NCBI GenBank assembly: GCA_046351255.1
Contig: JAXLYU010000014.1
Location: 187,730 to 251,729 of the forward strand
Origin: Labilithrix sp.
GTDB lineage: Bacteria > Myxococcota_A > Polyangia > Polyangiales > Polyangiaceae
Reading direction: 5' to 3'
DNA: 64,000 bases
Shown piece after piece: positions 3,937-41,393 of this stretch. The translations under genes were made by a program, and so were the position numbers. Below the pieces are notes generated by a model. The model had not been told where the DNA came from. It made no database searches and saw only the letters and a list, made by a program, of their open reading frames with translations. Within the stretch, counting starts at the first letter, position 1. Every line of letters begins with the position of its first letter.

Positions 3937-4998
<1,062 letters not shown>

Positions 4999-9298: not shown

Positions 9299-9958
9299 TC
9301 AGTCGCCTTTACCGCCGCACGTGGCGAAGGTCCGAGGGAGGCGCCACTCGCGAATGTTCTCGCTCGAGCAGGGCTGGGCCGCGCTGCAACCCGTCGTCGC
9401 CGCGCTGGGATCGCAGAGCTGCGCCTGCTCGCCGGTGCACGACGCCGCGCATTGCGCCACCACGCCGGTGTCCGTCTTGTTCACGCAGCACACGGTCCCC
9501 GGTCCGCAGTTCGCCTGGGCGGTGCACTTCAGGGTGACGCCGTTCTCGTTCTGCTGTCCGCCGCCGGGTGTGGGGCAGGTCGTTCCCGTGACACACGAGG
9601 AGGTCGCGGCCTGGCCGCCGCCCGCGCCGTTGCCACCCGCGTTGGTCACACAACAAACCTGGGTGGCGAGAGAGCACGAGGCGGTCCCGCAGGGGATGGC
9701 CGTCGTGTCGCCGCCCGGCCCGGTTCCGCCGTCCCCGCTGCTCGTCGTCCCGCCACCGTCGGTAGACGAGCCACTCGATCCGCTCGAGCTGGAGGTGCTC
9801 CCGCCGTCGTTCCCGCCCTGATTTGCCGTGCCCCCATCCCCTCCGCCGTCGGCGTTGGTGAAGAGATCGATCCCGGACGAGCCGCCACATGCAGTGGCGG
9901 AGAGGAGGGTGGCAACGGCACAAGCCAGGGCAAGGCGAGAGGCGCTCATCGACTTCAT
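9299..9958 (-). CDS. Cysteine-rich secreted lipoprotein
   Basis: ATG at 9958 (MKSMSASRLALACAVATLLSATACGG) has a lipobox, then a Gly/Ser-rich linker. The C-terminal 110 aa carry about 16 Cys, including two VCCV motifs. The upstream 66 aa of the track ORF are extension. Confidence 0.6.
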   Translation of the reverse strand: MKSMSASRLALACAVATLLSATACGGSSGIDLFTNADGGGDGGTANQGGNDGGSTSSSSGSSGSSTDGGGTTSSGDGGTGPGGDTTAIPCGTASCSLATQVCCVTNAGGNGAGGGQAATSSCVTGTTCPTPGGGQQNENGVTLKCTAQANCGPGTVCCVNKTDTGVVAQCAASCTGEQAQLCDPSAATTGCSAAQPCSSENIREWRLPRTFATCGGKGD

Positions 9959-10021
9959 GCTCGCGTATAGTGCCGGCGGCATTCGCGCCCCAGGCACGCG
10001 GCGCGTCGATTTCTCCCACCT

Positions 10022-10957
10022 ATGGCCTCTCCGCTCATCGTCGTCGTCGTCGTGGCCCTCGCGGACTCGAGCGATGAAGCGAGCCGCGCCATGACGCGCA
10101 CGGTACAGGACGCCCTCGCGGAGACGGCGCTGGTCGTGGTGCGCGAAGAGGCGCATCCCGACGACAACGCGCTACTCACCAAGCTCGGTGATACCATGCA
10201 CGCCAGTGCCGTGGTGGCCGTGCATTGGAGCGACGACGGCCACGCGCAGGTACGGGTTTACCGCATGGCGCTGCATGCGTGGGCGGCGCGGGACGTCGCG
10301 TTCGGGGCCGACGATCCGCCGGCCGAGCGAGGGCGCTCCCTCGGCTACGGAATCGCGAGCATGGTCCGCGCCGGGGTCGAGGAAGACCATCCGGCGGAGC
10401 CGAAGCCGACGCCTGCGCCCCCGGCGGAGCCGTCCGCGCCGCCGCCGCCGTCCCTTCCGCGCTGGGACGTCGAGCTTGCAGGGCAGGGCGCGGCCGCCTC
10501 CTCGACGACGAGCGCGGGCGCGTCGCTCGGGGCTGGATTCCGCGTCGTGGATCCGCTCCTCGGCCGCGACCGACTCGTCGTTCGCGCCAGCTTCGCCGGG
10601 CGAGGCGGGTCGATCGACTCCGCGGCCGCCTCCTCTCTCTATCTCCGCGCCACCGTCGGCGCGGCGTGGGCGTTCGCGTTCCAGCGGTTCACCGTCGGAC
10701 CGCGCATCGAGGCCGGCACGATCCGGCAGGGCGCGTCTCGCTCCGACACCGACGCCACCGGCGCTCGCTGGTCGGGCGTCTTCGACGTCCGCGCCGAGGC
10801 CACGGCGGCGCTCATCCCGCGCCTCTCGGTCGTCCTCGGCGTGGGCGCGGAGGTCGCGCTGGAGCGTGTTCCGATCCGGGTCGATCGAACCCAGGTGACC
10901 ACCCTCGCGCCGGTGCGCGGCCTCGGAATGGCTGGTCTGCGCCTCTTTCTCGACTGA
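10022..10957 (+). CDS. Hypothetical protein (possibly first gene of the ECF sigma operon)
   Basis: Codon usage is GC3-rich and the composition is protein-like with a Pro-rich linker. No recognisable motifs. The competing frame 10188..10898 is Arg-rich and rejected. Confidence 0.4.
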   Translation: MASPLIVVVVVALADSSDEASRAMTRTVQDALAETALVVVREEAHPDDNALLTKLGDTMHASAVVAVHWSDDGHAQVRVYRMALHAWAARDVAFGADDPPAERGRSLGYGIASMVRAGVEEDHPAEPKPTPAPPAEPSAPPPPSLPRWDVELAGQGAAASSTTSAGASLGAGFRVVDPLLGRDRLVVRASFAGRGGSIDSAAASSLYLRATVGAAWAFAFQRFTVGPRIEAGTIRQGASRSDTDATGARWSGVFDVRAEATAALIPRLSVVLGVGAEVALERVPIRVDRTQVTTLAPVRGLGMAGLRLFLD

Positions 10958-11109
10958 ACCTGCCTGCTAGGCGACCCGGAGAGATACTGTTCTGCATGGC
11001 GCGACTTCTGCCCGACCCCGAGCTGGACCGCGTCCATGCCGGCGGCACGGCGCAGCCGCCGGCCTCGAGACTCGAAGCCGAGCGACCGATCGATAGCTCG
11101 ACCGGGACG

Positions 11110-11688
11110 ATGCCGCTCCTCGACGACGCCGAGATGATCGCGAAGGTGCGTCGGGGCGATTCACGTGCCGCGACCGCTCTCTACGAGCGCGCGCGACCGA
11201 CGGTGCGGCGGATGGTGTGCCGGCTCCTGGGGCGATCGGATGCGGAGCATGACGATGTGGTCCAGACCGCGATGATTGCGATCGTCGATTCCATCCACCG
11301 CTTCCGCGGAGAGTCTTCGCTGGATACATGGTTTGCGCGGATCACCGCCAACACGGTGTGGCGGGTGTTCCGCCGCCGGACGAGCGAGCGTCGTCTGCTC
11401 GATACGAGAAGGGAGCCCAGCATGGTCGAGTCGGCGCAGGAGGGCTACGAAGCACGCGAGCTCCTCGCTCGCGTCCGCGACGTGCTGAACTCGATGGATC
11501 CGATCAAGGCGTATCCCGTCTTGCTCTTCGACGTGTGCGGCTACGATCTGAAGGAGGTCGCCGAGATCACACAGTCGAGCATCGCGGCGGCGCAGACACG
11601 CCTCGTACGCGGACGCGCCGAGCTTCACGAGCGCATCGAACGAGACCCGGAGCTGGCCGAGCTCCTCGCGCGGAGGGAACGACGTTGA
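11110..11688 (+). CDS. RNA polymerase sigma-70 factor, ECF subfamily
   Basis: Region 2 (DDVVQTAMIAIVDSIHRFRGESSLDTWFARITAN) and region 4 (DLKEVAEITQSSIAAAQTRLVRGRAEL) are present. ATG at 11110 (MPLLDDAEMIAKV) gives a canonical 192 aa. An in-frame ATG at 10996 would add a 38-aa low-complexity extension. Confidence 0.8.
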   Translation: MPLLDDAEMIAKVRRGDSRAATALYERARPTVRRMVCRLLGRSDAEHDDVVQTAMIAIVDSIHRFRGESSLDTWFARITANTVWRVFRRRTSERRLLDTRREPSMVESAQEGYEARELLARVRDVLNSMDPIKAYPVLLFDVCGYDLKEVAEITQSSIAAAQTRLVRGRAELHERIERDPELAELLARRERR

Positions 11689-12989
11689 GCACACCTCGCT
11701 TCGCGAAGCTCGCAACCGATCTCATCGCCGAGGAGGGGGAGCCCCGCGCCCCGTCGAGCGAGGCCGAGATCAAGGCCGTCGCCGCGATCGAGGACGCGCT
11801 CGCGCGCCGTCGTCGTGCGCGTCGCACATCGCAGATCGTCGGTGTGATGGCGGCCGCGGCCATGATCGCGGCCGTGTTCGGCGGGTGGCTGTCGCGACGT
11901 GAGCCGCACGCGCATGTCGCGCCGGGCCCCTCGTCCGCGCCTGCCCCCACGCCCTCGCCCTCCTCCTCGCCCACGCCCGCGTCGACACCGGAGACCGTGA
12001 TCGCGGCCCAGGCGATCGAGCCCGCGGAGGGCGCCGTCGTGGCGCGCGATGGTCGCACCGCGAGCCTCGCACCGTCGATGAGCCTCGCGAGCGGTGACCG
12101 CATCGAGTCCTCGCCGAAGGGGGGCACGGGCATCGCGCTCGCCGACGGGTCGCTCGTCCGGATCGATCCGGGCTCCGAGATCTCGGTGAAGGCGCTCTCG
12201 GACACGCGTCGCTTCCTCTTGAGCCGGGGCTCGCTCCGCGCCGACGTGGCGAAGCTCGGGCCCGCGCAGCGCTTCATCGTCGAGACGGAGGACGCGGAGG
12301 TCGAGGTGCACGGCACGTCCTTCCGCGTCGCGATCCGCGAGGGCTCGAGCGCGTGCCCGGCGCGAACGCAGGTCGAGGTGACCGAGGGTGTCGTGAGCGT
12401 GCGCTCGGCCGGCGTCGACGTGCGGCTCGGCCCGGGCTCGAGCTGGCCGGCGTGCGCGGCCCCCGCACCCCGACCGGACCTCACCACGATGCGCGCCTCG
12501 GAGCGCGCTCCGGACTCGTCGCCCCGCGTCTCCGACACGGGCGCCCGCCGGGGATCGTTGCCCCCGTCGTCGCCGCTCCCGGCGGCCGGTCCGGTTGCCG
12601 GCCCGGCAAGCGGGAGTGCCACCGGCTCGCACGCTCTCGCCGAACAGAACGAGCTCTTTGCGAAGGCGTCCGCCGCGCGTCGCGCCGGGGATGGCCCGGC
12701 CGCCGTCGCGGCCTACGATCGACTCATCGCGACCCACCCGGACGGCTTCCTCGCGGAGAGCGCCGCGGTCGAGCGGATGCGCGTGCTCGAAGGGATGAGC
12801 CACGCGCGCGGGCGCGAGGCGGCCGCGGCGTATCTCGCGCGCTATCGAACGGATTCGCGCGCGTCGAGGCCCAGCGCCTGGCCCAGTGACGCCACGCCCT
12901 CATGGGCTCCGACCAAATCGACCTTCGGTCTGCCTGATCTCCGCGGCGAGAGGGCACAGCGGACGAGAACTTCCGCGAGGTGCTCATGA
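11685..12989 (+). CDS. FecR-family anti-sigma factor (single transmembrane segment)
   Basis: TTG at 11685 overlaps the sigma stop (TTGA). A transmembrane helix IVGVMAAAAMIAAVFGGWL is present. The FecR domain reads GSEISVKALSDTRRFLLSRGSLRADV...VEVHGTSFRVAI. Confidence 0.7.
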   Translation: MSTPRFAKLATDLIAEEGEPRAPSSEAEIKAVAAIEDALARRRRARRTSQIVGVMAAAAMIAAVFGGWLSRREPHAHVAPGPSSAPAPTPSPSSSPTPASTPETVIAAQAIEPAEGAVVARDGRTASLAPSMSLASGDRIESSPKGGTGIALADGSLVRIDPGSEISVKALSDTRRFLLSRGSLRADVAKLGPAQRFIVETEDAEVEVHGTSFRVAIREGSSACPARTQVEVTEGVVSVRSAGVDVRLGPGSSWPACAAPAPRPDLTTMRASERAPDSSPRVSDTGARRGSLPPSSPLPAAGPVAGPASGSATGSHALAEQNELFAKASAARRAGDGPAAVAAYDRLIATHPDGFLAESAAVERMRVLEGMSHARGREAAAAYLARYRTDSRASRPSAWPSDATPSWAPTKSTFGLPDLRGERAQRTRTSARCS

Positions 12990-14827
12990 GCCGCTTCCGT
13001 CTGTCTGCATGGATCTCGATCTCGGCTTCGATGGCCCTCGTGGCCCTCGCGGCCATCGGCGCCCCCGCCTGCGGTAGCTCCGATGCTGGCGACATACCGC
13101 CCGTGACTACGGCGGACGGAGGCGGCGGGACGTCGACCTCGTCCGGCGCGGCCTCGAGCTCGGGAGCCTCGAGCTCGGGAGCCTCGAGCTCGGGAGCCTC
13201 GAGCTCTGGTGCCTCGAGCTCCTCCTCCTCGAGCTCCGGCTCGCTCGACGCGTCGTCTGACGCGCCGAACGACGCAGCGCTGGCCTGCGGTGACCTCGGC
13301 CAGACGTGCTGCGCGACGGGTACGGCGTGTACCAACGGCGCGTGCGTCGGCGGTCTCTGCCAGCCATGCGGCGGACCGGGTCAGACGTGCTGCGCCGGTC
13401 GCTCGTGCGTCGACGGACAGGCGTGCACCGGAAACGGACGAGGCCTCTGCACCGCCTGTGGTGGCAACGCGCAGACGTGCTGCGCTGGGAACTCGTGCGG
13501 CGCCGGCGGCTGTTGCGTCGGCAACTTCTGCACGTCCTCGGGCAACACCTGTCCGACGGTGGGCGGCACGTGCGGCGCGGGCAGCTGCGGGACCTGCGGC
13601 GCTCTCACGCAACCGTGCTGCGCTGGAAACACGTGCACCGCGGCCGGCGCGACGTGCAACCCAGGCACGAATACCTGCGTCGCTTGTGGTGGCGCCGGGC
13701 AGGCCTGCTGCGGTGGAAATACGTGTACCGCGGCCGGCACGACGTGCGCGGGCAACCAGTGCGTCGCGTGCGGCGGCCCTGGTCAGCCTTGCTGCGCGGG
13801 CAACGCCTGCGGCGCGGGCAACGCCTGCAACGCGGCTCGTCTCTGCGAGGCTTGCGGCGGCAGCGGCGAGATCTGCTGCGCCGGCGCGACGTGCGGCGGG
13901 GGCGGCTGCTGCGACCCGGCCAACGATCACTGCGTGACCGCTGCCTCCACGTGCTCCTTCGGCGGCGCGTGCACGGGCGGCAAGTGCTCCGTCTGCGGCG
14001 CGGCCCACGAGGCGTGCTGTCCGGGCGACACGTGCGGCGGCGGCGGCTGCTGCAGCGGCGGTGTCTGCTACGCGTCGGGCGAATCGATCCCCGGCACGGC
14101 GAACGTCTGCAATGCGGGCACGGCCACCGCGTGTGGTGTCGATGGTCAGGCGTGCTGTGGAGGCGGCGCGTGTACGACGGCCACGTCCTGTTGCGTGGCG
14201 GGCAAGTGCGTGGGCACCGGCACGACCTGCGGCGGTGCGCTCGGCACCTGCTCGAGCGGCAGCTGCTCCACGGGCGGCGGCGCGGGCAACCAGTGTGGCG
14301 CGGCAGGTCAGAACTGCTGCCCCGGCGGCGCGAACAACGCGGCCGACTTCTGCACGGGTCCGGGCCTGACCTGCGGCGACAACGGAAAGTGCGCGTCCTG
14401 CGGCGCTCCGGGCGAACCGTGCTGCGGCGGGTCCGCCTGCAACGGCGGCGGCTGCTGCAACCAGGACACGAACCGCTGCATCGCCTCGGGCGCCGCGTGC
14501 CCCGGCGCCCTCGGCACCTGCTCGAACGGCGGCTGCGGCGCGTGCGGCGGCTTCGGCGAGCCGTGCTGCGGGGGCGACGTCGAGTGCACGGCGCCGTTCA
14601 CGCGCTGCGGTAACAACAACGTCTGCCTCGCGTGTGGCGGCAGCGGCCAGCGCTGCTGCCCGTCGCAAGGCGATGGTGACTTCTGCGGCGCAGGCTTCGT
14701 CTGCCGCGGCGGCGGAGGCAATCCCTCCTCGTGCGTCGCGTGCGGAGGCCCGGGCCAGGCGTGCTGCGCGGGCAACCTCTGCAAGACTGGTAGCTGCACT
14801 GGGGGCACCGGCCTCTGCCCGCCGTGA
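12986..14827 (+). CDS. Secreted cysteine-rich tandem-repeat protein, family A (~20 repeats)
   Basis: ATG at 12986 (GTG at 12980) overlaps the FecR gene end. Signal peptide MSRFRLSAWISISASMALVALAAIGAPAC, then a Ser-rich linker and about 20 copies of CGGxGQxCCxGNxCxxxGxxC. It is a paralogue of 3937..4998. Confidence 0.75.
   Translation: MSRFRLSAWISISASMALVALAAIGAPACGSSDAGDIPPVTTADGGGGTSTSSGAASSSGASSSGASSSGASSSGASSSSSSSSGSLDASSDAPNDAALACGDLGQTCCATGTACTNGACVGGLCQPCGGPGQTCCAGRSCVDGQACTGNGRGLCTACGGNAQTCCAGNSCGAGGCCVGNFCTSSGNTCPTVGGTCGAGSCGTCGALTQPCCAGNTCTAAGATCNPGTNTCVACGGAGQACCGGNTCTAAGTTCAGNQCVACGGPGQPCCAGNACGAGNACNAARLCEACGGSGEICCAGATCGGGGCCDPANDHCVTAASTCSFGGACTGGKCSVCGAAHEACCPGDTCGGGGCCSGGVCYASGESIPGTANVCNAGTATACGVDGQACCGGGACTTATSCCVAGKCVGTGTTCGGALGTCSSGSCSTGGGAGNQCGAAGQNCCPGGANNAADFCTGPGLTCGDNGKCASCGAPGEPCCGGSACNGGGCCNQDTNRCIASGAACPGALGTCSNGGCGACGGFGEPCCGGDVECTAPFTRCGNNNVCLACGGSGQRCCPSQGDGDFCGAGFVCRGGGGNPSSCVACGGPGQACCAGNLCKTGSCTGGTGLCPP
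13151..13225. repeat. 15-bp tandem repeat (gcctcgagctcggga) x3 perfect plus 2 variants, encoding (ASSSG)n linker
   Basis: Read directly from the sequence. Lies inside the Cys-rich gene 12986..14827. Confidence 0.8.
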
Positions 14828-14878
14828 TGTGACGACCGCGCCCCGACCACGAGCCGCCGAGCCCGGGGCGCGGCTGGG

Positions 14879-15622
14879 TCAGTCACACCCTGACATGACG
14901 GACGTGCTGGTGCCCGTGGTCGAGTTGGGGATGGACACCCAGCTGCAGCCCGGGCCGCTCCCCCCGCTCGCGCCGCTCTTCGTCTGCCACGTGTTCACGG
15001 ACTGCGATTGCGCGGCCTTTGCGCGCTGCACGACGTTTCCGAGCGGAGCGCCGTTCTTGCTCAGGTTCCCCTTCGCGTCGAGGTCGTAGGCGCCGACGTA
15101 CTGATAGACGTTGCCCGGATCGCCGCCGAAGATGCGGATCAGGTAGTCACGCTCCACGCGCGTGATCTCGCGCCCGTTGACGAGGATCGACGTGTCACCG
15201 TTCGAGGCATCGCGCGCGAGCGGCGCGGCGTTGAGGCCGGCCTTGGCCACGCCACCGGCGCCATGGCCGACGAGGCCGTAGAGGCCGGAGCGCGCGTCGT
15301 ACCAGTAATTCCCGGGCACCGGACGTGTGCCGAGCATCGCGGCGAGCTCCTTCATCTCCGCGTCGTCGAGCGTCTTGCCGTTGATGACGACGGCGGTCGG
15401 CGCAGGCGCGGGGGCCGGCGCAGGCGCGGACGCGGACGTCGACACGGACGCGCTCGCCGGCGCGGCCGACCCGGACGCGCTCTCCGCCGGCGCGCTGGAC
15501 GTCGGATTCGAGCTGTTCGGCGGAGAGCCGGGCGTTTGCATTGGCTTGTTCAGGCTCTGCGCCGCCTCGTTCATCGCCGCGCAACCCGTCATGACCAGGA
15601 CGATCGCTATTCGACCTCTCAT
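14879..15622 (-). CDS. Lipoprotein, hypothetical
   Basis: ATG at 15622 (MRGRIAIVLVMTGCAAM) has a lipobox, then a Pro/Ser/Ala-rich linker and a C-terminal globular domain. It lies downstream of the SMI1/KNR4-like gene. The first 55 aa of the track ORF are extension. Confidence 0.55.
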   Translation of the reverse strand: MRGRIAIVLVMTGCAAMNEAAQSLNKPMQTPGSPPNSSNPTSSAPAESASGSAAPASASVSTSASAPAPAPAPAPTAVVINGKTLDDAEMKELAAMLGTRPVPGNYWYDARSGLYGLVGHGAGGVAKAGLNAAPLARDASNGDTSILVNGREITRVERDYLIRIFGGDPGNVYQYVGAYDLDAKGNLSKNGAPLGNVVQRAKAAQSQSVNTWQTKSGASGGSGPGCSWVSIPNSTTGTSTSVMSGCD

Positions 15623-15806
15623 CGTTACCCCGCGCGCCGAGCATACGCCCATTCGTGGCCCCACGGACCAGCTCGACCGCCTTGGTTGGTGCCCTCCTTG
15701 GCGGAACGTGCTCGCGCTGCAGCGCATCGACGAGCCTCTCGACCCACGCCGAGAAGCACGGGGCTTCCACCGCGCGGCGGTTGTCATCGTGAGGCCAGTC
15801 GATCAC

Positions 15807-16283
15807 CTAACCCTTCACGCCCGCCTTCGTCGGCGCGAGATCGAGGCACTTGTAGTCACCGCCGCCGCTGTCCGAGGAGGGGAACCAGCCCTTGTCCCAG
15901 AAGACCGGACGCACGCGCTCGTCGTCGTCCTCGACGCGGTAGCCCTTCATCATCTTCGCGAGGTCCTTCTGACGATGCATCGCCTGCGCCGACCTTGCGA
16001 GTGAGAGCACACCCCACGGAAACGGCCCGCCGCCGAGATCGCCTTCGCCCCCGTCATGCAGCGCGCGCCAGGCCAGGTAGTCGTCCGGCAGCTTCCGCTC
16101 CAAGGCCGCCTTCAGGTCGTCCTTCGACGCGATCGTGTCGACGTAAGCGGCCCAGCCAAGACGAAGCCTCTCCACGGGCTCGGCGCTCGGCTTCACGCCG
16201 AGCGCTCGGCCGATCGCAGCCAGGCGTGCTTCATCCAGCTTCGAACCGGTGCTCCGCGTGACGCGATAGATCTTCGTCGCCAT
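15807..16283 (-). CDS. SMI1/KNR4 (SUKH-1) family protein
   Basis: LPDDYLAWRALHDGGEGDLGGGPFPWGV and FPSSDSGGGDYKCLDLAP match the conserved SMI1/KNR4 blocks (...GGG.Y.CLD). Confidence 0.55.
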   Translation of the reverse strand: MATKIYRVTRSTGSKLDEARLAAIGRALGVKPSAEPVERLRLGWAAYVDTIASKDDLKAALERKLPDDYLAWRALHDGGEGDLGGGPFPWGVLSLARSAQAMHRQKDLAKMMKGYRVEDDDERVRPVFWDKGWFPSSDSGGGDYKCLDLAPTKAGVKG

Positions 16284-16303: not shown

Positions 16304-17839
16304 CTAAGACGCGATGTAGGCCGCCACCGCGTCGTGATCGAGGTGAACGAGCAGGATCACGAAGTCGCCCGGCTCCGCCTCGGACAGCGCGACGCGTAGA
16401 GAGTCGACCTCGGAGTCGGCCGCGCGTAGCTCCGTGAAGCCTCGGCGGGCGAACGCGCCGCGAAAGAACGCGGTGACGTCGCCGAGGGCGCGGCCGCGGA
16501 GATAGTCCGGCATCTCGCGCAGGATCACGCTCCTGGGCTGCGCCTCGACGACATGGCGCGCCATCTCGTCGAGCTCGTGGTCCGTGCGATCTCCCGCGCT
16601 GCCGAGGCAGACGAAGAGGCGTCCTGCGCCGCGGAGCTGGCGTACGAGCCCCATCACGGCGCGAATGCCGTCGGGGTTGTGCCCGAAATCGAGGAGCACG
16701 CGGACGCCGTTCTTCTCCGCGAGCGCGGTGCGGCGCGGGTTCTCCGCCGTCGTGAAGCCGGTGAGCGCGCGACGGATGGCGTCGTCCGGTAGGCCGAGCG
16801 CGGTCGCCGCCGCCGCGACGCCGAGCGCGTTCGCGACGTTGAAGCGCGCCGCGCCGCGAAAGGTGAGGGGGATCTCGTCGACCTGACCGAGCTCGATCTC
16901 ACCGCGCCGGATGCGGCCGTTCTCGGCCACCACGGACTCGCCGCGGTGTCCGCGGTGGCCCTCGACGACGGCGCGCGCCTCGGGGGCGGTGTCGAGATCG
17001 GCATAGAGGAGCACGCGTCGATCCGCGAAGCGCTTCGCGAGCGCGGCGAGGCGCGGATCCGCCGCGTTCAGCACGACCGCCTTCGCCGCCTCCGCGATCA
17101 CGGCCTTCACGTTCGTCATCGCGTCGAGATCGTCGATGCCGTAGGAGCCGAGGTGGTCGTCGCTGATGTTCGTCATGAGCGCGACGTCGCAGCGATCGAT
17201 CGCGAGCCCGCGCCGGAGGATCCCGCCACGCGCCGTCTCGAGCACGGCGAGGTCCACGTCGGTCCGGCGCAGGACGACGCGCGCCGCCTGCGGTCCCGTC
17301 CAGTCGCCGGCGGAGATGACCTGGCCGCCGATCGCGATCGCGTCGCTCGACGTCACGCCGACGGTCCGGCCGGCCTCCATCGCCACGCGCGCGAGCCAGC
17401 GCGTCGAGGTCGTCTTCCCGTTCGTGCCCGTGACGAGGGCGATCGGGACGCGACCGAGTCGATCCCACGGCACCTCGGCGACGTCCGGCACGGCGTGGCG
17501 CGGCCACGTCGCGGAGGAGCCGGTCCCATAGCCGACGCTGACCTCCTCGTCGTCCCACAAGAAGGGCAGATCGCGCGCGCGCGCCTCCGCCTCGAGGCGC
17601 CGCAGGCCTGGGCTGCGATCGCGCGCGAGGATCGCGTCGATCTCGGTCCGCTTCGGCTCGAGCTCGAGCGGCGCCGCGCCGGACATGCGCGCGCAGGCGC
17701 TCATCGCCGCCCACTCCGTCATCTCCGTGCACGCGAGCATCACGTCGATCGGCTCGACGTACGCGATCACGATCCCGCCGTGATGCGGGCGCTGGAGGAG
17801 GCCGGAGACGGCGGGCGGAAACCCGAAGGCCTCCCGCAT
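16304..17839 (-). CDS. Stand-alone Mur-ligase-type protein, paralogue of the cyanophycin synthetase M domain
   Basis: IPIALVTGTNGKTTSTRWLA (P-loop), AVLETARGG and DHLG align residue-by-residue with the M-domain of the adjacent CphA (IPIAAITGTNGKTTTARMLA...AVLETARGG...ADHLG). No ATP-grasp domain is present. Confidence 0.8.
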   Translation of the reverse strand: MREAFGFPPAVSGLLQRPHHGGIVIAYVEPIDVMLACTEMTEWAAMSACARMSGAAPLELEPKRTEIDAILARDRSPGLRRLEAEARARDLPFLWDDEEVSVGYGTGSSATWPRHAVPDVAEVPWDRLGRVPIALVTGTNGKTTSTRWLARVAMEAGRTVGVTSSDAIAIGGQVISAGDWTGPQAARVVLRRTDVDLAVLETARGGILRRGLAIDRCDVALMTNISDDHLGSYGIDDLDAMTNVKAVIAEAAKAVVLNAADPRLAALAKRFADRRVLLYADLDTAPEARAVVEGHRGHRGESVVAENGRIRRGEIELGQVDEIPLTFRGAARFNVANALGVAAAATALGLPDDAIRRALTGFTTAENPRRTALAEKNGVRVLLDFGHNPDGIRAVMGLVRQLRGAGRLFVCLGSAGDRTDHELDEMARHVVEAQPRSVILREMPDYLRGRALGDVTAFFRGAFARRGFTELRAADSEVDSLRVALSEAEPGDFVILLVHLDHDAVAAYIAS

Positions 17840-17976
17840 CCGTGCCAGCTCGGCGAGGTACAGCTCGCGCGCGCGCGCGGGCTCTTCTCCCGGATCGAGC
17901 TCGAGCTCGACTTGAACGAGCGGATGCCCCGCGAGGAAGTTCGGCCCCGTGAGCCGGCGCGCGGTCTCCAGATACC

Positions 17977-20787
17977 TCAGTCGTCGCTCTCCCTCGCGAT
18001 GCGCACGCCGCGCTCGTCCTGGATGACGGTGGCGCCGTCGAGCATGACCTCACCGACCGCGACCGAGGAGCCGCGCGCCGCCGGCACCGCCGCGTGTGAG
18101 GGCGCGGGCGGAGGCGTGGAGCCCTCGTGACTGTCGGGCTTGAAGTAGATGACCTGCTTCCAGGAGCGAGAGACCTTGTCCGCGAAGAGGAGGAGGAGGT
18201 CGCCGCGGCGGGCCATGCGGAGCGCGGCGTCGATCGCGGCCGGCTCCTCCACCACCATCTGGATCTTCTCCTTCGGGAAGCCGCTCGCGACGAGCTCGTC
18301 GTGGAGCATCTTCGGCACCTCGTCGGGCTGGCGCCCGCGCGGATCGTCGTCGCGGCGCACGATGACGTGATCGAAGGGACCACGAGCCACCGCGCGCGCG
18401 ATGTTGCGGATGTCCTCGTCGCGGCGATCGCCAGGGCCGGCGACGACGCAGATGCGCCGGCCGCTGCACTCGAGGCGCTGCACGAGGTCGACCATGGCCT
18501 GCACCGCGGGCGCGTTGTGTCCGTAATCGAGGACCACCTTGAACGGGTGATCGTTGAACACGTTCGTGCGCCCCGGCACCTGGAAATACGAGTTGTCGAA
18601 GGTGCGGAGGCCCTGGCGGATGTTCTCGATGCGAACGCCCATCGCGTAGGCCATGGCCGCCGCGAAGAGTGCATTCTGCACGTTGTGCATCGCCTTGCCC
18701 TCGATGGTGGCCGGGATGAGGTGCGTCCAGAGCAGGGGCGTGAGCGCGCCCTTGTCGTAGAGCGTGATCATGTGCCCGTTGATGCCCTCCTCGAGGACGA
18801 CGGCGAGGCCGCCCGCGCGGATGTGCTTGCGCACGAGGTCGTGCCGCGGGTTCATGGTGACGTACGCGATGCGCTCCGCCTCCGTGTGGTCTGCCATGCG
18901 GAGGCACTGGATGTCGTCCGCGTTGAGCACGGCGCAGTCGGTGGCGACCTCCACCACGATGCGCTTCACCTCCGCGAGCTGCTCGATCGTCTCGACGCCG
19001 CGATCGCCGAGGTGATCGGCCTGGACGTTGAGGACCGCGCCGACATCGCACTTGCGATAGCCCATGCCCGCGCGGAGCAGGCCGCCGCGCGCGGTCTCGA
19101 GGACGGCGAGGCTGACGGACGGATCGCGAAGGACGATCTGTGCGGACGCGGGGCCGGTCATGTCACCGGTCACGGTGCGCTCGCCGTCGATGTAGACGCC
19201 GTCGGTCGTGGTGAGGCCGACGGTGTGGCCGTTCATCTTCTGGATGTGCGCGAGCATGCGCGCGGTCGTCGTCTTGCCGTTCGTGCCCGTGATGGCGGCG
19301 ATCGGGATGCGTGACGGCGTCCCTGGCGGGAACAGCATGTCCATGACGGGCGCGGCCACGTCACGCGGCTTTCCTTCGGTGGGCGCCACGTGCATGCGGA
19401 AGCCGGGGGCCGCGTTCACCTCGCAGATGCCACCGCCGACCTCGCGATAGCTCTGCGTGATGTCGGAGGTGATGAAGTCGACGCCGCACACGTCGAGGCC
19501 AATCGCCTTCGCGGCGCGGATCGCCATCTCGCGGTTGTCGGGGTGGACGGAGTCGGTGAGGTCGATCGCGGTGCCGCCCGTCGAGAGGTTACCGGTGCCG
19601 CGCAGGAAGAGGCGCTCGCCGTCGGGGAGCACGGTCTCCTTCGTGACGCCCGCCTTCGCCATGAGGCGCGCCGCCTGCTCGTCGAGCTCGAGGCGCGTGA
19701 GGACCTTCTCGTGCCCGATGCCGCGACGCGGATCCTGGTTCACGATGTCGACCAGCTCCGCGATCGTGTGCTTGCCGTCGCCGACGACGTGGCCCGGCAC
19801 GCGCTTCGCGACCGCGACGAGATCGCCGCCGATGACGAGCATGCGGTGATCGAAGCCGGCGAGGAAGTTCTCCACGACCACGCTGCGCGCGTGCTCTCGG
19901 GCCTTCTCGAACGCGACCTTCACCTCGTCCTCGGTCTTCAGATCGAGCGAGACGCCCCGGCCGTGGTTCGCGTCGAGCGGCTTCACCACGACGGGGAAGC
20001 CGAGGCGCTTCGCGGCGGCGACCGCGCCCTCGGGCGAGCGCACGAGGCGCTGGCGCGGCACGGGCAGGCCGAGGTCGCCGAGGATGTGGTTCGTCTCTTC
20101 CTTGTCGGAGGCGATCGACACTGCGATGTGGCGCGTCTCGGACGTGACCGTGGCCTGGATGCGCTTCTGGTACTTGCCGTGTCCGAACTGGACGAGGCTG
20201 TAGTCGTTGAGGCGGAGCCACGGGATGCCGCGGGCCTCTGCGGCGCGGACGAGCGAGCCCGTGGACGGGCCGAGCTGACGCCGCTGCGCGTAGTCGATGA
20301 GCTCGACGAGCTCGGTCTTGAAATCGAAGGGCTCTTCCTTCTCCGTCGCCTCCGCGTTCACGGCGGGCCGGAGATCGGCGGGGAGCAGGTGGTGCAGCAG
20401 CTTCAGCGCGAGATCGGCCGCCGCCTCTCCGACGCGCTCTTCCTCGTACTCGTAGACCACGTGGTAGCGGCCCTTGGTGCCCTCGCTCCGCGTCTTGCCG
20501 AAGGTGACCTGCGCGCCCGTGAGCTGCTGGAGCTCGATCGCGACGTGCTCGAGGACGTGCCCGAGCCAGGTGCCTTCCTCGAGGCGCTGGAGGAAGCCGC
20601 CCTCGACGCCGACGCTGCACGTGTGCGACTTCAGGCTCGGAAGCGCGGTGGTGAGCGCGGCGTTGAAGCCGGGGATCTTCGCGCTCGGCCAGTCCTCGAG
20701 CTTTCCAAGGTCGACCGTGAGGCGCATGACGGGGAAGTGCGCGTAGAGGCTGGGACCTCGGTAGACGCGGCGTTCGAGCAGCTCCAT
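17977..20787 (-). CDS. cphA: Cyanophycin synthetase CphA
   Basis: 936 aa with an N-domain (MELLERRVYRGPSLYAHFPV), an ATP-grasp G-domain and a Mur-ligase M-domain (ITGTNGKTTT, VLETARGG). An AGGAGA-like RBS lies upstream. Confidence 0.9.
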   Translation of the reverse strand: MELLERRVYRGPSLYAHFPVMRLTVDLGKLEDWPSAKIPGFNAALTTALPSLKSHTCSVGVEGGFLQRLEEGTWLGHVLEHVAIELQQLTGAQVTFGKTRSEGTKGRYHVVYEYEEERVGEAAADLALKLLHHLLPADLRPAVNAEATEKEEPFDFKTELVELIDYAQRRQLGPSTGSLVRAAEARGIPWLRLNDYSLVQFGHGKYQKRIQATVTSETRHIAVSIASDKEETNHILGDLGLPVPRQRLVRSPEGAVAAAKRLGFPVVVKPLDANHGRGVSLDLKTEDEVKVAFEKAREHARSVVVENFLAGFDHRMLVIGGDLVAVAKRVPGHVVGDGKHTIAELVDIVNQDPRRGIGHEKVLTRLELDEQAARLMAKAGVTKETVLPDGERLFLRGTGNLSTGGTAIDLTDSVHPDNREMAIRAAKAIGLDVCGVDFITSDITQSYREVGGGICEVNAAPGFRMHVAPTEGKPRDVAAPVMDMLFPPGTPSRIPIAAITGTNGKTTTARMLAHIQKMNGHTVGLTTTDGVYIDGERTVTGDMTGPASAQIVLRDPSVSLAVLETARGGLLRAGMGYRKCDVGAVLNVQADHLGDRGVETIEQLAEVKRIVVEVATDCAVLNADDIQCLRMADHTEAERIAYVTMNPRHDLVRKHIRAGGLAVVLEEGINGHMITLYDKGALTPLLWTHLIPATIEGKAMHNVQNALFAAAMAYAMGVRIENIRQGLRTFDNSYFQVPGRTNVFNDHPFKVVLDYGHNAPAVQAMVDLVQRLECSGRRICVVAGPGDRRDEDIRNIARAVARGPFDHVIVRRDDDPRGRQPDEVPKMLHDELVASGFPKEKIQMVVEEPAAIDAALRMARRGDLLLLFADKVSRSWKQVIYFKPDSHEGSTPPPAPSHAAVPAARGSSVAVGEVMLDGATVIQDERGVRIARESDD

Positions 20788-20794
20788 CTCTCTC

Positions 20795-21622
20795 CTAGCT
20801 TTCGGAAGGTGCGCTTGCGCGGCGCGTCTCGAGGTCGAAGGTGCCGCCTGCGGTGAGGACGTGCAGGCGAATGTTGGTGAGGCTCACGGGGCGCCCCTCT
20901 TTCGTCTCGGCGATCGACGAGTGCGTCAGCTCCGATGCGTCGACGATGGTGAGCGCGCCGGTGCCGACGACGGTGAGCTTGCGCGCGTGATCGATGAAGG
21001 CGGCGGTGTCCTCGTCGAGCCCGACGCCGACCGCGAACGGGTTGTACGCGAGCGCGGTGAGCAGGCGGCCGAGGCGATCGCGCTGGCGGAAGTGCTGGTC
21101 GATCATGATGCGGTTGGTGAGCCCGAACCCGGGCGCGAGCGACACCTTGCCCGCCTTCGGCGTGTGCCCCTCCTCGCCGTACGCGATCATGTGCTCGCTG
21201 AGGATGGCGGCACCGGCGCTCGTACCGCCGACGGTCGCGCCGCGCGCGTTCGCGCGCCGGATCGCCTTGGCCATGGGCGTCCCGCCGATGATGGTGGAGA
21301 GGCGGAGCTGGTTGCCGCCGGTGACGAAGATGCCGTCCGCCTCGCTGATGTACGTCAGCCACTCGTCGCGCGTGCAGTCGTCGCGCTTGAAGAGCGGGAG
21401 CGCCTTCGCCTCGTCGGCGCCGAGCTTGCGAAAGAGCTTCTCGTAGCGGCGCCCGGTGTCCTCGAGCTTGGAGGCGGTGGGGATCACGACGATGCGCGAG
21501 CCCTTGCCGCCGGAGACCTCGAGGAAGCGACGCAGAATATCGGACGGCCCGTCCTTGTCCTCGGCGCCGCCGATGGGGACGATGAATCCGCGCTTCTTGT
21601 CCGGCTCTACCTTTGCTGGCAT
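20795..21622 (-). CDS. cphB: Cyanophycinase CphB (peptidase S51)
   Basis: 275 aa. Carries the GGTSAGAAI serine motif and VIPTAS... blocks typical of cyanophycinase. It is immediately upstream of cphA on the same strand. Confidence 0.85.
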   Translation of the reverse strand: MPAKVEPDKKRGFIVPIGGAEDKDGPSDILRRFLEVSGGKGSRIVVIPTASKLEDTGRRYEKLFRKLGADEAKALPLFKRDDCTRDEWLTYISEADGIFVTGGNQLRLSTIIGGTPMAKAIRRANARGATVGGTSAGAAILSEHMIAYGEEGHTPKAGKVSLAPGFGLTNRIMIDQHFRQRDRLGRLLTALAYNPFAVGVGLDEDTAAFIDHARKLTVVGTGALTIVDASELTHSSIAETKEGRPVSLTNIRLHVLTAGGTFDLETRRASAPSES

Positions 21623-28020: not shown

Positions 28021-28260
28021 GCCACCTCGCAAGGGGCTCTGGGGCATGTGTGCTCTCGTACTCCGCTGTCGGTATCGGCCTGATCATGGGGTGGTGAGGT
28101 CACGCCGCGCGACGATCGAGCGCGCGCCCTTCCCGACGTGAAGTCGCCCACTTGCACGGGCGCGGAGCTGCCATTTGGCGACACGCCTGGAATCTGGAAC
28201 GAGCAGGCACCCCGAAGGAGGCTCGCCGGCGGTGGTCCGGCGGTTGCTGCATCGTGATGC

Positions 28261-29277
28261 ATGCATTCATCACGAATCGCACTCGCCCTCTTCGTCGCGA
28301 CCTCTCTCTCTCTCGTCGCGTGCTCCGAGGCGTCGCCCTCGTCGCTGTCACGCGCGGGGGATGACGAGTCGGTCAGCGACAAGACCACGACGAAGCGCGC
28401 GCCCATGAAGAAGGCGACGGACGGTGACGAGGCGGTCGGGCCGAGCGCGGTCGGCGGCACGCACCGGCGCGTATACCGCGCGTCGCACGAGGCTCCGAAG
28501 AAGAAGTATCCCACCGGTCTCCTCACGTCGCCGCCGGGCAAGGCCAAGGCCGCGAAGCGCTCCAGCCTGCGCGTGCAGGCAGACGCGAACGAGCTCCCGC
28601 CGTCGGTCGACCTGACCGGCAACGCGCCGGCCGCCGCCAACCAGGGGAACACCTCGGCCTGCGGGACCTTCGCCACGGGCTATGCCCTCATGGGGTGGTG
28701 GGCGAAGACGGTGGGCATGCCGGGCGCGCCGTACGCGCCGATGTTCCTCTATTCGCTTCAAGCGGAGGGCGACTGCGCCAACCACGGGACGTTCATCGAG
28801 GACAACATGGATATCCTGCGCAACTTCGGTATCCCGTCCGACACGGCTTATCAGCCCATGCAGTCTCGGCTCGACTGCGTGACCCAGCCCACCCAGGCCG
28901 CGGCCAACGACGCCGCCGCGCACCGCGTCGCGTCGTATGACGTCCTCGACCTCTCGGGCAGCAAGGCGCTCGCGATCGCGCAATACCTCGCGGCCGGTGT
29001 CCCGGTCGTGATCGGCATGCAGACGTACAACGCGATCTTCAACGCGAGCCAGGAGAACTGGCTCGTCGATCAGCCGATGCCGGGTGAGCAGTCCACGGGC
29101 GGGCACGCGGTCACCGTCTTCGCCTATGACCAGAACGGCCTCTGGTTCCTCAACTCCTGGGGCGAGGAGTGGGGCTGGCAGGGCTGGGCCCAGCTCTCGT
29201 GGGACTTCGTCGACGGAGCCCAGGGCGGCATCGACAACATCAACTCCGCCGCCGCCGCCACCGACGTCCAGCGCTGA
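28261..29277 (+). CDS. Papain-like cysteine peptidase (C1 family), lipoprotein
   Basis: Lipobox MHSSRIALALFVATSLSLVAC. QGNTSACGTFATG (Gln/Cys), GGHAVTVFAYD (His) and NSWGEEWG (Asn-Ser-Trp) reproduce the C1 catalytic blocks. Confidence 0.75.
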   Translation: MHSSRIALALFVATSLSLVACSEASPSSLSRAGDDESVSDKTTTKRAPMKKATDGDEAVGPSAVGGTHRRVYRASHEAPKKKYPTGLLTSPPGKAKAAKRSSLRVQADANELPPSVDLTGNAPAAANQGNTSACGTFATGYALMGWWAKTVGMPGAPYAPMFLYSLQAEGDCANHGTFIEDNMDILRNFGIPSDTAYQPMQSRLDCVTQPTQAAANDAAAHRVASYDVLDLSGSKALAIAQYLAAGVPVVIGMQTYNAIFNASQENWLVDQPMPGEQSTGGHAVTVFAYDQNGLWFLNSWGEEWGWQGWAQLSWDFVDGAQGGIDNINSAAAATDVQR

Positions 29278-40474: not shown

Positions 40475-40972
40475 TCAGGGCGGGCAGGGGCCGCAGTCGC
40501 GGACGCCGCCACAGCCGTCGTTCATGAGGCCGCACGTGACGCCGGCCTGCGCGCACGTCATCGGTGTGCACGTCGGAGGCGAGCCGCACTGGCTCGGGAC
40601 GCCGCCTCCGCCGCAGGTCTGGCCCGCCGGGCACGTGCCGCAGCTCATGAGGCCGCCACAGCCATTCGACTGCGGGCCGCAGCCGGCCCCGAGCTGGGCG
40701 CATGTCATGGGCGTGCACGAGGACTGACGCACGCATCGCCCCGCCACGCACGTGAGGCTGCGCGAGCACGTGCCGCACAGGAGGAGCCCGCCGCAGCCGT
40801 CCGCGGACGTACCGCACTGGACGCCGAGGCCTGCACACGTGCGCGGGACGCAAGCGGAGAGTCCGAGGTCGGTCTCGACCTCGACGCTCGGCGTGGTCGA
40901 CTCGCTGGGTGCGGTCGCGCACGCGCCGACCGCCAGCATCGCCGCGATGATCGAGATGGATGAACGGATCAT
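40475..40972 (-). CDS. Cys-rich repeat lipoprotein, family B
   Basis: ATG at 40972 (MIRSSISIIAAMLAVGAC, lipobox). Three repeats of T-C-A-x-x-G-x-x-C-G-x-x-x-D/N-G-C-G-G-x-x-x-C-G-x-C. The upstream 43 aa of the track ORF are extension. Confidence 0.6.
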   Translation of the reverse strand: MIRSSISIIAAMLAVGACATAPSESTTPSVEVETDLGLSACVPRTCAGLGVQCGTSADGCGGLLLCGTCSRSLTCVAGRCVRQSSCTPMTCAQLGAGCGPQSNGCGGLMSCGTCPAGQTCGGGGVPSQCGSPPTCTPMTCAQAGVTCGLMNDGCGGVRDCGPCPP

Positions 40973-40988
40973 GTCGTCGTCTCCTTCT

Positions 40989-41393
40989 TCAGGCGCCGCA
41001 CTGAAGGTTGCCGCCGCAGCCGTCCGGCACGAGGCCGACCCGCCCGGCGCACGTGTTCTTGACGCACGTGCACGTCCCCTCGTCGCGAAGCGAGTCGCCA
41101 TTGCACCGGTTGTTCGTCTTTCCGCCCGCCTGGCTGCACGGACAGGCGAAGCGCGTCCCGTTGCCCGCCGGATACACGGCGTTGTCGTTGCATGGGCTGC
41201 CGATCGCGCCGGTCCTTCCCAGGCTGCGGCACGTGTTCAGCGCCTGCTCCTCGAGCGGCGCCGCCGCGGGCGCGACGAGGACGGGCTCGCTCGGCGCCGG
41301 CTCGTCGTCCGCGATGGCGCAGCCCGCCGCCGGCGCCAGCGCCGTCAGAGCAATCACCAGACCGAGGGGCCTCACGCGCGTCCGCTTCGTCAT
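40989..41393 (-). CDS. Cys-rich lipoprotein, family B (one repeat unit)
   Basis: MTKRTRVRPLGLVIALTALAPAAGC has a lipobox. The C-terminus TCAGRVGLVPDGCGGNLQCGA carries the same unit as the downstream gene. The two genes are tandem with a 17-nt gap. Confidence 0.55.
   Translation of the reverse strand: MTKRTRVRPLGLVIALTALAPAAGCAIADDEPAPSEPVLVAPAAAPLEEQALNTCRSLGRTGAIGSPCNDNAVYPAGNGTRFACPCSQAGGKTNNRCNGDSLRDEGTCTCVKNTCAGRVGLVPDGCGGNLQCGA

Follow-up and report, generated by a model that had tools for sequence, protein, structure and literature searches.

The window, the 64,000-nt stretch of Labilithrix sp. contig JAXLYU010000014.1 that was analysed as a whole, holds a gene for an ECF-type sigma factor, a gene for a FecR-domain anti-sigma factor and a gene for a Cys-rich repeat lipoprotein in that order, so that both the ORFs and the domain matches bear out the gene order proposed in the initial annotation. 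The flanking genes and promoter-like motifs are collected in Table 1.

Table 1. Features of the cassette and related elements, in window coordinates.
Feature	Position	Strand	Basis or remark
Paralogous lipoprotein, same repeat family, 353 aa	3937..4998	+	59 Cys, 9 units
Divergent lipoprotein gene (219 aa)	9299..9958	-	ORF and translation; conserved beside cassette
Promoter-like motif GCCTG-N16-GGCAC	9970..9995	-	Core match, 11 nt from ATG 9958
orf311, first gene of conserved cassette	10022..10957	+	C-terminal 8-stranded barrel
Promoter-like motif TGCCTG-N16-GATAC	10961..10987	+	PWM 15.6, 8 nt before sigma ATG
ECF-type sigma-70 factor, 230 aa	10996..11688	+	Pfam and TIGR02937 matches
Single-pass anti-sigma factor, FecR domain	11685..12989	+	Frameshifted at ~12845; ancestral stop TGA 12887-12889
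Promoter-like motif TGCCTG-N16-GGCAC	12931..12957	+	PWM 18.5, within 96-nt spacer
Repeat lipoprotein gene, 613 aa	12986..14827	+	ATG 12986 to TGA 14827; orthologs, dN/dS
Repeat lipoprotein, signal peptide and Cys29	12986-13072	+	Sequence anatomy
Repeat lipoprotein, Ser-rich linker	13073-13285	+	Sequence anatomy
Repeat lipoprotein, 14-unit Cys array	13286-14824	+	Sequence anatomy

The sigma factor matched Sigma70_r2 (5.9e-13), Sigma70 r4_2 (3.4e-07) and Sigma70_ECF (9.3e-07) in Pfam and TIGR02937 in NCBIfam (1.9e-18; 66.6 bits vs. a cutoff of 42.9). Its only domains are sigma-2 (PF04542) and sigma-4 (PF08281), which is the make-up of an ECF (group 4) factor. The start at 10996 is supported by the GC3 of the N-terminal extension (0.82) and by indels that are net in-frame relative to the related locus L004. 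As originally noted, the sigma stop (TGA 11686-11688) overlaps the anti-sigma start (TTG 11685) in a TTGA; this overlap is kept in L004, L007 and L008, as for a membrane anti-sigma factor co-transcribed with its sigma factor, and GGAGGG lies 8 nt 5' of the TTG. The anti-sigma factor is built from a short cytoplasmic N-terminus, one transmembrane helix (IVGVMAAAAMIAAVFGGWL, read straight from the sequence), a Pro/Ser linker, the FecR domain (PF04773; residues 138-237, 1.1e-14) and a TPR-like end. For the latter, Pfam returned a weak TPR_14 match (TPR_6 or YfiO-like matches in homologs) and no FecR_C-type C-terminal domain.

Upstream of the sigma gene, orf311 encodes a protein in which a Pro-rich linker joins an alpha/beta domain at the N-terminus to an 8-stranded outer-membrane beta-barrel of OmpA/NspA/OmpW-like fold at the C-terminus. 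Its N-terminus (MASPLIVVVVVALADSS) is hydrophobic, has no basic n-region and forms a strand of the N-domain in the AF2 model; this apparent lack of a classical signal peptide weakens the reading of orf311 as an outer-membrane partner. The divergently transcribed lipoprotein (18 Cys, with a Gly/Ser-rich linker) had no Pfam or NCBIfam match and is kept beside the cassette in L004 (92%), L007 (60%) and L008 (42%). Other neighbours within ~10 kb encode an ABC-2 transporter, an HlyD-family protein, an amidohydrolase, a SUKH-1 protein, a cyanophycin synthetase and a peptidase S51.

At its 3' end the anti-sigma gene had also been taken to overlap the start of the repeat gene. An ATGA overlap is indeed present in the window, but it is not conserved and is the product of a 1-nt deletion at ~12845 (CTACCCGAAC to CTA-TCGAAC). 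The nearest relative lacks this deletion in three independent assemblies, and the deletion is the sole isolated coding indel of a length other than a multiple of three in the 10 kb compared with L004. Since all aligned anti-sigma homologs (26/26) share the ending ...YLARYPxGFARxEA... where the window has TGA 12887-12889, the conserved arrangement is a spacer: the two genes lie 74-96 nt apart in relatives, and 96 nt apart in the window when counted from the ancestral stop. Thus the step from overlap to tight coupling fails, because a window-specific frameshift made the overlap. The window anti-sigma factor is left without the conserved last helix, and in this strain the system may be defective or no longer properly regulated. 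As a caution on method, a stop/start overlap seen in a single sequence can be a frameshift product.

The repeat gene, whose likely ribosome-binding site is GAGG at 12977-12980, encodes a protein rich in Cys (103) and Gly (142). The N-terminus (MSRFRLSAWISISASMALVALAAIGAPAC, followed by GSS) places Cys29 in a lipobox-like APAC, an atypical one; the paralog carries a canonical LVAC. The linker is coded by a 15-nt tandem repeat (13151-13221). While a secreted protein with a Ser-rich linker and a Cys array was thereby recovered as proposed, and has a signal peptide, the number and uniformity of its units were not: instead of about 20 (or 30) six-Cys copies, the array consists of 14 units initiated by CGxxG(Q/E)xCC, of which nine are short, with 6 Cys in 27-36 aa, four are long, with 10 Cys in 46-54 aa, and one has 8 Cys. 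The array contains 102 Cys, to which the lipobox adds one; without the lipobox Cys the count is likewise even in the paralog (58) and in the canonical small proteins of related cassettes (28). The odd total fits one lipidated Cys, and we infer that the repeat protein is lipidated and disulfide-bonded.

Several features mark the ORF as a gene: i) GC3 of the repeat frame is 0.86, vs. 0.57 in the antisense ORF; ii) dN/dS against a 96%-identical contig is 0.10, indicating purifying selection; iii) orthologs are present in L004 (98.8% identity) and L007 (77.5%), and every window unit is closer to its L007 counterpart than to the other units of its own protein; iv) the protein has 171 homologs at E<=1e-3, and a profile of the unit matches ~712 representative proteins; v) the AF2 model is confident across much of the array (mean pLDDT 74.5; many array blocks >90).

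The CGxxGQxCC repeat family is uncatalogued, a compact 6-Cys module. Searched with the whole protein, Pfam gave no match at E<=0.1, and with one or two units it gave none at E<=10; NCBIfam gave no family at E<=0.1, PDB sequences gave no match at E<=10, and Foldseek against PDB gave no fold match (best E=1.6). The initial annotation had allowed for a known family such as EGF or antifreeze-like repeats; neither these nor granulin, Stig1, Dickkopf, hevein/CBM18 or knottin were matched by Pfam, PDB sequences or Foldseek. TraA-type TIGR04201 identity was also rejected (no NCBIfam match; hhalign probability 1.5% for the unit profile against the canonical slot-4 family of related cassettes). The unit is sometimes fused to proteases, esterases or carbohydrate-binding domains. 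The paralog in the window has no adjoining sigma gene and no PWM match of at least 13 nearby, and the homologs outside cassettes have neither sigma gene nor motif. The unit may warrant a new domain entry as well as structural work.

A Cys-rich ORF directly follows the anti-sigma gene in 69 of 81 related Polyangia loci, with a 4-nt overlap in 51, and relatives of orf311 lie upstream of sigma in most. The usual product of this fourth slot is a ~200-aa, 29-Cys TraA-type repeat protein: the TraA model (NF033759) matches 58, and TIGR04201 matches 37, of the 66 small slot-4 proteins. A CGxxGQxCC protein occupies the slot in the window clade only (window, L004-L006, L007), where the order of sigma, anti-sigma and repeat genes is kept in orthologs at 96% and at ~64-69% anti-sigma identity.

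In related cassettes a family motif, TGCCTG-N16-GGYAC, stands before the sigma genes. Its form GCCTG-N16-G[GA]TAC, with a spacer of invariably 16 nt, was found in the orf311-sigma intergenic regions of 28 of 48 other loci (the window being the 29th of 49), with near variants in most of the remaining loci, while in shuffles any dyad was present in at most 8 loci. Over the related loci, core motif matches numbered 117 vs. ~18 in shuffles; 41 of them immediately precede a sigma start, at 9-22 nt in most cases, a spacing which further supports the start at 10996. Within the window, the core motif occurred three times in 64 kb vs. 0.38 expected, and PWM scores of at least 13 were reached at two sites only, before sigma and before the repeat gene. 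The site before the repeat gene is the best in the window, ends 28 nt before the ATG and exceeds the maximum of 17.0 in 20 simulated 64-kb sequences, which yielded 0.1 PWM matches of at least 15 per 64 kb; the L007 spacer keeps TGCCTG-N16-GGCAC though its upstream part has diverged. The site before sigma is second-best, and its distance from the ATG would make the sigma mRNA leaderless or nearly so. The third, minus-strand match precedes the divergent lipoprotein gene, which may belong to the local sigma regulon, and has a counterpart at the equivalent place in L007 (5054, minus strand). The large Cys-rich genes in the related cassettes L057 (Stig1-type) and L028, whose repeats are of other types, likewise each have a motif copy to themselves. 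We infer that the motif is the promoter of the window sigma, an assignment made by position and conservation; it could instead serve a paralogous sigma factor or another regulator. The DNA between the anti-sigma and repeat genes showed no terminator, thus co-transcription of the repeat gene by read-through is also possible.

The reading that we favor, with moderate confidence, is a Polyangia-specific envelope-signalling cassette of outer-membrane barrel protein, ECF sigma factor, FecR/TPR-like anti-sigma factor and Cys-rich lipoprotein, in which the repeat lipoprotein is a sigma-dependent output. The alpha/beta N-domain of orf311 is here taken as periplasmic. The anti-sigma factor would keep sigma at the inner membrane until an extracytoplasmic cue freed it, and the freed sigma would then read TGCCTG-N16-GGYAC promoters. 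Its predicted targets at this locus are the sigma/anti-sigma operon (autoregulation, via a leaderless mRNA), the repeat gene and the divergent gene for the 18-Cys lipoprotein. The repeat protein itself would be a lipid-anchored chain of 14 small, disulfide-stapled beta-hairpin modules, held off the membrane by the Ser-rich linker, and in this lineage would fill the slot of the small TraA-type 29-Cys lipoprotein that is elsewhere translationally coupled to the anti-sigma gene. Output rather than sensor is thus the role that the data suggest for it; the original proposal of a regulated cargo gains from synteny, the Cys-rich slot in 69 of 81 loci and the spacer motif, and loses its overlap argument.

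The other role first proposed, that of signal-sensing partner, appears unlikely for the repeat lipoprotein. On this view it would bind the anti-sigma factor at its periplasmic FecR/TPR part and control sigma release, perhaps as an RseB-RseA-like regulator or an RcsF/NlpE-like sentinel reporting oxidative folding or surface contact. Recurrence of a Cys-rich ORF in the slot, with the 4-nt translational-coupling overlap in 51 loci, speaks for such a partner, as does the sharing of the slot by unrelated families (TraA-type, Stig1-type and CGxxGQxCC), which points to selection for some general feature; it is also common for autoregulated ECF operons to encode their own regulators. But in the window clade the gene is uncoupled, lying 74-96 nt from the anti-sigma gene and behind a promoter motif of its own, and the repeat family also occurs away from sigma genes and fused to enzymes or binding domains. 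Sensing fits the small, translationally coupled TraA-type proteins better than this large protein with its separate motif. A broader proposal, to which we give a similarly small chance, is that the cassette family is a TonB-independent, Polyangia-specific signalling system in which barrel and disulfide-rich lipoprotein jointly sense for the FecR/TPR anti-sigma factor and Cys-richness itself is selected, e.g., as a readout of oxidative folding in the periplasm or a rigid surface probe. If true, this would explain why unrelated Cys-repeat families appear repeatedly in or beside the slot on the same promoter type.

Less probable still is an incidental adjacency, in which the usual slot-4 gene was lost and an unrelated Cys-rich lipoprotein gene landed beside the cassette, expressed independently of sigma. 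Most occurrences of the repeat family lie outside ECF cassettes, its unit profile is not detectably homologous to the canonical slot-4 family (the hhalign comparison above) and the arrangement is confined to the window clade; yet the order is kept across lineages at only ~64-69% anti-sigma identity, the spacer carries the best PWM match of the 64 kb, conserved in L007, and the divergent lipoprotein gene shares the core motif. Finally, the chance that this long reading frame, rich in Cys, Gly and Ala, is no gene and reflects the 72% G+C composition of the DNA, as the 608-aa ORF open on the opposite strand (12842-14668) might suggest, is practically negligible in view of the GC3, dN/dS, homologs, ortholog-specific units and largely confident model of the repeat frame.

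In Polyangia each genome encodes dozens of ECF sigma factors, and for almost all of these, to our knowledge, signals and targets are not known. With a recurrent four-gene cassette and a candidate motif, the regulons of this sigma family become predictable from sequence and testable, and its sigma factors are linked to the unexplained abundance of disulfide-rich lipoproteins in myxobacterial envelopes.

Among known systems, the TraA-type repeats (TIGR04201 Myxo_Cys_RPT; NF033759) are likewise extracytoplasmic and disulfide-rich and occur in Myxococcota, but their pattern is CxxDxDC-x6-C-x6-CxxC, vs. C-x6-CC-x4-C-x5/6-C-x4-7-C in the window. In the envelope stress systems RpoE-RseA-RseB, RcsF and NlpE, an accessory factor, either a periplasmic protein or a lipoprotein, adjusts the activity of a membrane regulator; the window protein has no sequence or fold relation to these, and its action as a modulator is hypothetical. 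ECF267 of ECF classification 2.0, compared by description only, is also described as protein-kinase-associated (PMC7826278), whereas no protein kinase adjoins the window locus. Dma likewise ties ECF signalling to an 8-stranded outer-membrane barrel and has lipoproteins such as NigD1 in its regulon; there, in a different phylum, the barrel is fused to the anti-sigma factor via a disordered linker, while here it is a separate, upstream-encoded protein and the anti-sigma factor ends in FecR and TPR-like domains. Like FecI-FecR-FecA (E. coli; CSS of Pseudomonas), the cassette has an ECF sigma factor co-transcribed with a single-pass FecR-domain (PF04773) anti-sigma factor, an outer-membrane protein encoded alongside and a sigma factor that appears autoregulated. 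On the other hand, it lacks a TonB-dependent transducer over ~10 kb to each side (nor was one found in L004, L007 or L008), its anti-sigma factor ends TPR-like with no FecR C-terminal domain detected, its outer-membrane protein consists of an 8-stranded barrel and an alpha/beta N-domain, its motif is TGCCTG-N16-GGYAC, and its proposed outputs are Cys-rich lipoproteins rather than an iron transporter.

The cassette comprises four co-directional genes on the plus strand (orf311, an ECF sigma factor, an anti-sigma factor and a 613-aa ORF), in a region of ~72% G+C. The sigma factor fits the definition of an ECF sigma factor, and its stop codon overlaps the anti-sigma start as initially annotated: TTGA is common to both genes, with GGAGGG 8 nt upstream. 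The N-terminus of orf311 (10022-10072) is an invariant hydrophobic MxSPLIVVVVVAL without basic residues, which may serve as a signal peptide of atypical kind or instead form a strand of the structure. Scans of 9800-15100 for sigma-70 promoters and intrinsic terminators found nothing.

Coordinates of the cassette genes, related genes and promoter-like motifs (window positions unless a related locus is named)
Feature	Coordinates	Strand	Remarks
orf311	10022-10957	+	outer-membrane-barrel protein gene
ECF sigma factor	10996-11688	+	Sigma70_r2 and r4_2 domains; TIGR02937 match
Single-pass membrane anti-sigma	from TTG 11685	+	FecR domain, residues 138-237 (E = 1.1e-14); weak TPR-like C-terminus
Repeat lipoprotein gene	ATG 12986 to TGA 14827	+	613 aa; signal peptide, Ser-rich linker, Cys-rich array
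Paralogous repeat lipoprotein	3937-4998	+	353 aa, 59 Cys, 9 units; canonical LVAC lipobox, poly-Gly insertion
Divergent lipoprotein gene	9299-9958	-	219 aa, 18 Cys, Gly/Ser-rich linker; GCCTG-N16-GGCAC upstream
Papain-family gene	28261-29277	+	Peptidase_C1 (2.7e-08); lipoprotein-like N-terminus; core motif 28185-28210
PWM match, score 18.5	12928-12963	+	TGCCTG-N16-GGCAC, ends 28 nt before repeat-gene ATG
PWM match, score 15.6	10958-10993	+	TGCCTG-N16-GATAC, ends 8 nt before sigma ATG
Further core match	9970-9995	-	11 nt before divergent 18-Cys lipoprotein gene
Further core match	28185-28210	+	50 nt before papain-family (Peptidase_C1) gene
Large Cys-rich lipoproteins behind own motif copies	L028 5980-7383; L057 5961-6995, 8827-10671	+; -, +	one CC-containing knottin-like, two Stig1-type

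On the other hand, the second overlap initially annotated, between the anti-sigma and the repeat gene, is present in the window sequence but is not the conserved arrangement, being produced by a 1-nt deletion at ~12845. A search with the window anti-sigma returned 78 homologs of ~360-400 aa, and the C-terminus ...YLARYPxGFARxEAxRLAx is common to the 26 aligned, among them all six whose full sequence was read. At this site the window has CTA-TCGAAC, whereas a relative at 96% identity has CTACCCGAAC in each of three independent assemblies (L004, L005 and L006); the deletion eliminates the invariant residues G388, F389 and A394 and exchanges the final 14 residues of the anti-sigma for 49 out-of-frame ones, the frameshifted ORF running through the ancestral TGA (12887-12889) as far as 12989. 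A conserved C-terminal helix of the anti-sigma is truncated by it. Across 10 kb aligned against L004, no other isolated indel within a coding region has a length indivisible by three. The deletion may be genuine allelic variation, possibly with deregulation of the system as its effect, or else a one-off error of assembly. What is conserved before the repeat gene is a spacer, 96 nt long in L004 and 74 nt long in the more distant ortholog L007; RNA folding of the spacer gave nothing remarkable (z = -0.87).

The order orf311, sigma, anti-sigma and repeat gene is conserved in L004 and L007, with identities of 96.9% and 69% respectively for the anti-sigma and 98.8% and 77.5% for the repeat protein. 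Moreover, species-representative genomes were scanned with an anti-sigma alignment, which confirmed 224 relatives, and the 80 retrieved were all from Polyangia, Polyangiaceae, Labilithrix or unclassified myxobacterial MAGs. A tblastn match to orf311 was found near the sigma gene in most related loci (beginning ≤1.8 kb upstream of sigma in 48 of them), and a Cys-rich ORF lay immediately 3' of the anti-sigma in 69 of the 81 evaluable ones. These fourth-position ORFs were mostly small (66/69; 125-284 aa, mode 29 Cys), 58 of the 66 matching NF033759, the TraA model, in its Cys-repeat part, and 37 matching TIGR04201, while three were large: those of L004 and L007 are of the CGxxGQxCC type, and that of L057 is a 631-aa Stig1-repeat protein. 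Kinship of the repeat unit with the canonical, TraA-type fourth-position family was rejected, as hhalign of the two profiles gave a probability of 1.5%. No account of this cassette came up in the literature searched.

A promoter-like motif, GCCTG-N16-G[GA]TAC, was present in the orf311-sigma intergenic region of 28 of 48 other loci (the window being the 29th of 49), with a spacer of invariably 16 nt, while the best dyad in shuffled sequences reached eight loci; near variants (GGCAC, TGCAC, GTTAC) occurred in most of the remaining regions. The core GCCTG-N16-GG[TC]AC occurred 117 times across the related loci, versus ~18 in shuffles: 41 immediately precede the start codon of the long-form sigma, in most cases by 9-22 nt, eight precede Cys-rich genes, and ~50 precede further flanking genes, of which many seem to encode lipoproteins. 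We scanned both strands of the 64-kb window with a PWM trained on the sigma-upstream instances, the window excluded, and obtained exactly two matches scoring ≥13, one before the sigma gene and the other before the repeat gene; first-order Markov simulations yielded 0.1 matches ≥15 per 64 kb, with a highest score of 17.0. At threshold 13 no match was found in L001-L003 (contigs of repeat-protein relatives) or near the paralog at 3937-4998, and at threshold 9 none in the contigs L090 and L091. The large Cys-rich genes of L057 and L028 carry their own motif copies. A sigma-54 reading of GGCAC/GGTAC was rejected, since this second block lies only ~9-22 nt before start codons, its partner block is invariably 16 nt further upstream and it is not followed by TTGC.

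The reading that we favour, and hold to be probable, is that a sigma factor held by the anti-sigma drives, once released, the repeat lipoprotein as its output. The anti-sigma would sequester sigma until a periplasmic or outer-membrane cue freed it, a cue perhaps detected by the FecR/TPR domain with the orf311 barrel protein as helper; from TGCCTG-N16-GGYAC promoters the freed sigma would then transcribe the genes of both lipoproteins, repeat and divergent, as well as its own operon, the mRNA of which would be leaderless. The regulated repeat protein of the initial annotation is thereby partly supported, but on grounds other than its overlap argument. The main rival, which makes the Cys-rich lipoproteins of the fourth position modulators of the anti-sigma or sensors alongside it, draws on translational coupling in the canonical loci (a 4-nt overlap with the anti-sigma in 51/69), yet it fits the window clade less well, the gene there being uncoupled and having its own predicted promoter, and we regard it as unlikely. 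Incidental adjacency of repeat gene and cassette is quite improbable, being disfavoured by the conserved spacer motif: the spacer of L007 retains TGCCTG-N16-GGCAC despite divergence on the upstream side of the motif. An artefactual, non-genic origin of the repeat ORF can in practice be dismissed, its reading frame being genuine because its GC3 is 0.86 (versus 0.57 for a 608-aa antisense ORF) and its dN/dS against the 96%-identical contig is 0.10. The cassette is an ECF/anti-sigma system that has a conserved set of genes of unusual make-up and a predicted promoter, and its likely target is a disulfide-rich repeat lipoprotein of uncatalogued type.

The signal peptide of the 613-aa product ends APAC (Cys29) and is followed by the Ser-rich linker and then the Cys-rich array; the whole protein contains 142 Gly and 103 Cys (102 in the array plus the lipobox Cys). 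The linker is encoded by a 15-nt tandem repeat (13151-13221) of GASSS units. The window (13151-13236) and L004 (7547-7560) do not have equal numbers of copies, in-frame indels accounting for 18 nt between them. The initial annotation, whose observation is partly confirmed, had counted ~20, elsewhere 30, copies of a 28-aa six-Cys unit, which was not borne out: the array consists of 14 units initiated by CGxxG(Q/E)xCC, namely nine short ones (27-36 aa, 6 Cys, spacing C-x6-CC-x4-C-x5/6-C-x4-7-C), four long ones (46-54 aa, 10 Cys) and one with 8 Cys. The Cys count is even in every unit, so that each could form a closed disulfide module. Each unit was 71-93% identical to the same-position unit of the L007 ortholog and ≤68% identical to any other unit within the protein, so that the array is old and under positional constraint; TRF found no DNA-level tandem repeat within it. 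In the AF2 model, whose mean pLDDT is 74.5 and in which many array blocks reach 90-95, short beta-hairpins follow one another in chains.

A match of the repeats to a known family was what the initial annotation had named as counting against it, and none was found: even with the threshold relaxed to E≤10, no Pfam or NCBIfam model matched the paralog or the repeat protein, taken whole or as single and double units, and no PDB sequence matched the repeat protein at E≤10. A word-indexed search with the repeat protein found 171 proteins at E≤1e-3, with a best local identity of ≤54% (the 54% alignment covers only 28% of the query), and a 27-position unit profile matched 712 representative clusters among 1.84 billion proteins, with 3-18 units per protein in the best 150. 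The CGxxGQxCC repeat family is thus real and modest in size. Elsewhere the units co-occur with CBM9-like, FG-GAP/VCBS, PA14 plus DUF4215, esterase, fibrinogen-C and S8 peptidase domains; in the sequences read, they come after a lipoprotein-like signal (CBM9, esterase and fibrinogen-C proteins) or after the catalytic domain (S8 peptidase). Such varied partners suggest that the repeat is a general extracytoplasmic module, one member of which was recruited to this cassette. No sigma/anti-sigma genes were found near the homologs P0001, P0002, P0003, P0005 and P0006 or the window paralog. The best database match to the repeat protein, P0001 (L003 21-1715; 564 aa, at a scaffold end), joins a dihydroorotase/amidohydrolase-like N-terminus to a repeat array; a chimera, either of assembly or of gene calling, is the probable explanation.

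In L004, L007 and the related locus L008, the divergent 18-Cys lipoprotein gene has kept its place next to the cassette, and the papain-family gene may belong, at a distance, to the regulon of the cassette sigma. Disulfide-rich lipoprotein genes are unusually abundant in the window, where Cys-rich lipoprotein-like ORFs with other repeat types lie at 40475-41236, 40989-41402 and 43885-44322 (all minus strand; one example, CTPMTCAQxGxxCGxxxDGCGGxxxCGxC, in three copies). Convergent with the repeat gene is that of an uncharacterised 302-aa lipoprotein (14879-15787, minus), which adjoins a SUKH-1 (SMI1/KNR4) gene (15807-16283, minus; PF09346, 1.1e-09); SUKH-1 proteins are often annotated as toxin immunity proteins. 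A cyanophycin cluster (16304-21622, minus) encodes a Mur-ligase-like protein, a 936-aa cyanophycin synthetase and a cyanophycinase-like peptidase S51.

Among known systems, group ECF267 of the ECF classification 2.0, proteobacterial and linked to kinases, has FecR-like anti-sigma factors with TPRs (PMC7826278) and is only a lead as the group of the window sigma. The Dma anti-sigma factors of Bacteroides, which have lipoproteins in their regulon (PMC10927553), share an 8-stranded barrel with the cassette, but the Dma barrel is fused to the anti-sigma while that of the window is a separate protein. With FecR-type cell-surface-signalling regulators the window anti-sigma shares only the central FecR domain, having no detectable FecR C-terminal domain, and, unlike in FecIRA, no TonB-dependent transducer is found near the cassette. 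The window anti-sigma, predicted to act in the manner of FecR, falls outside the FecIRA type.
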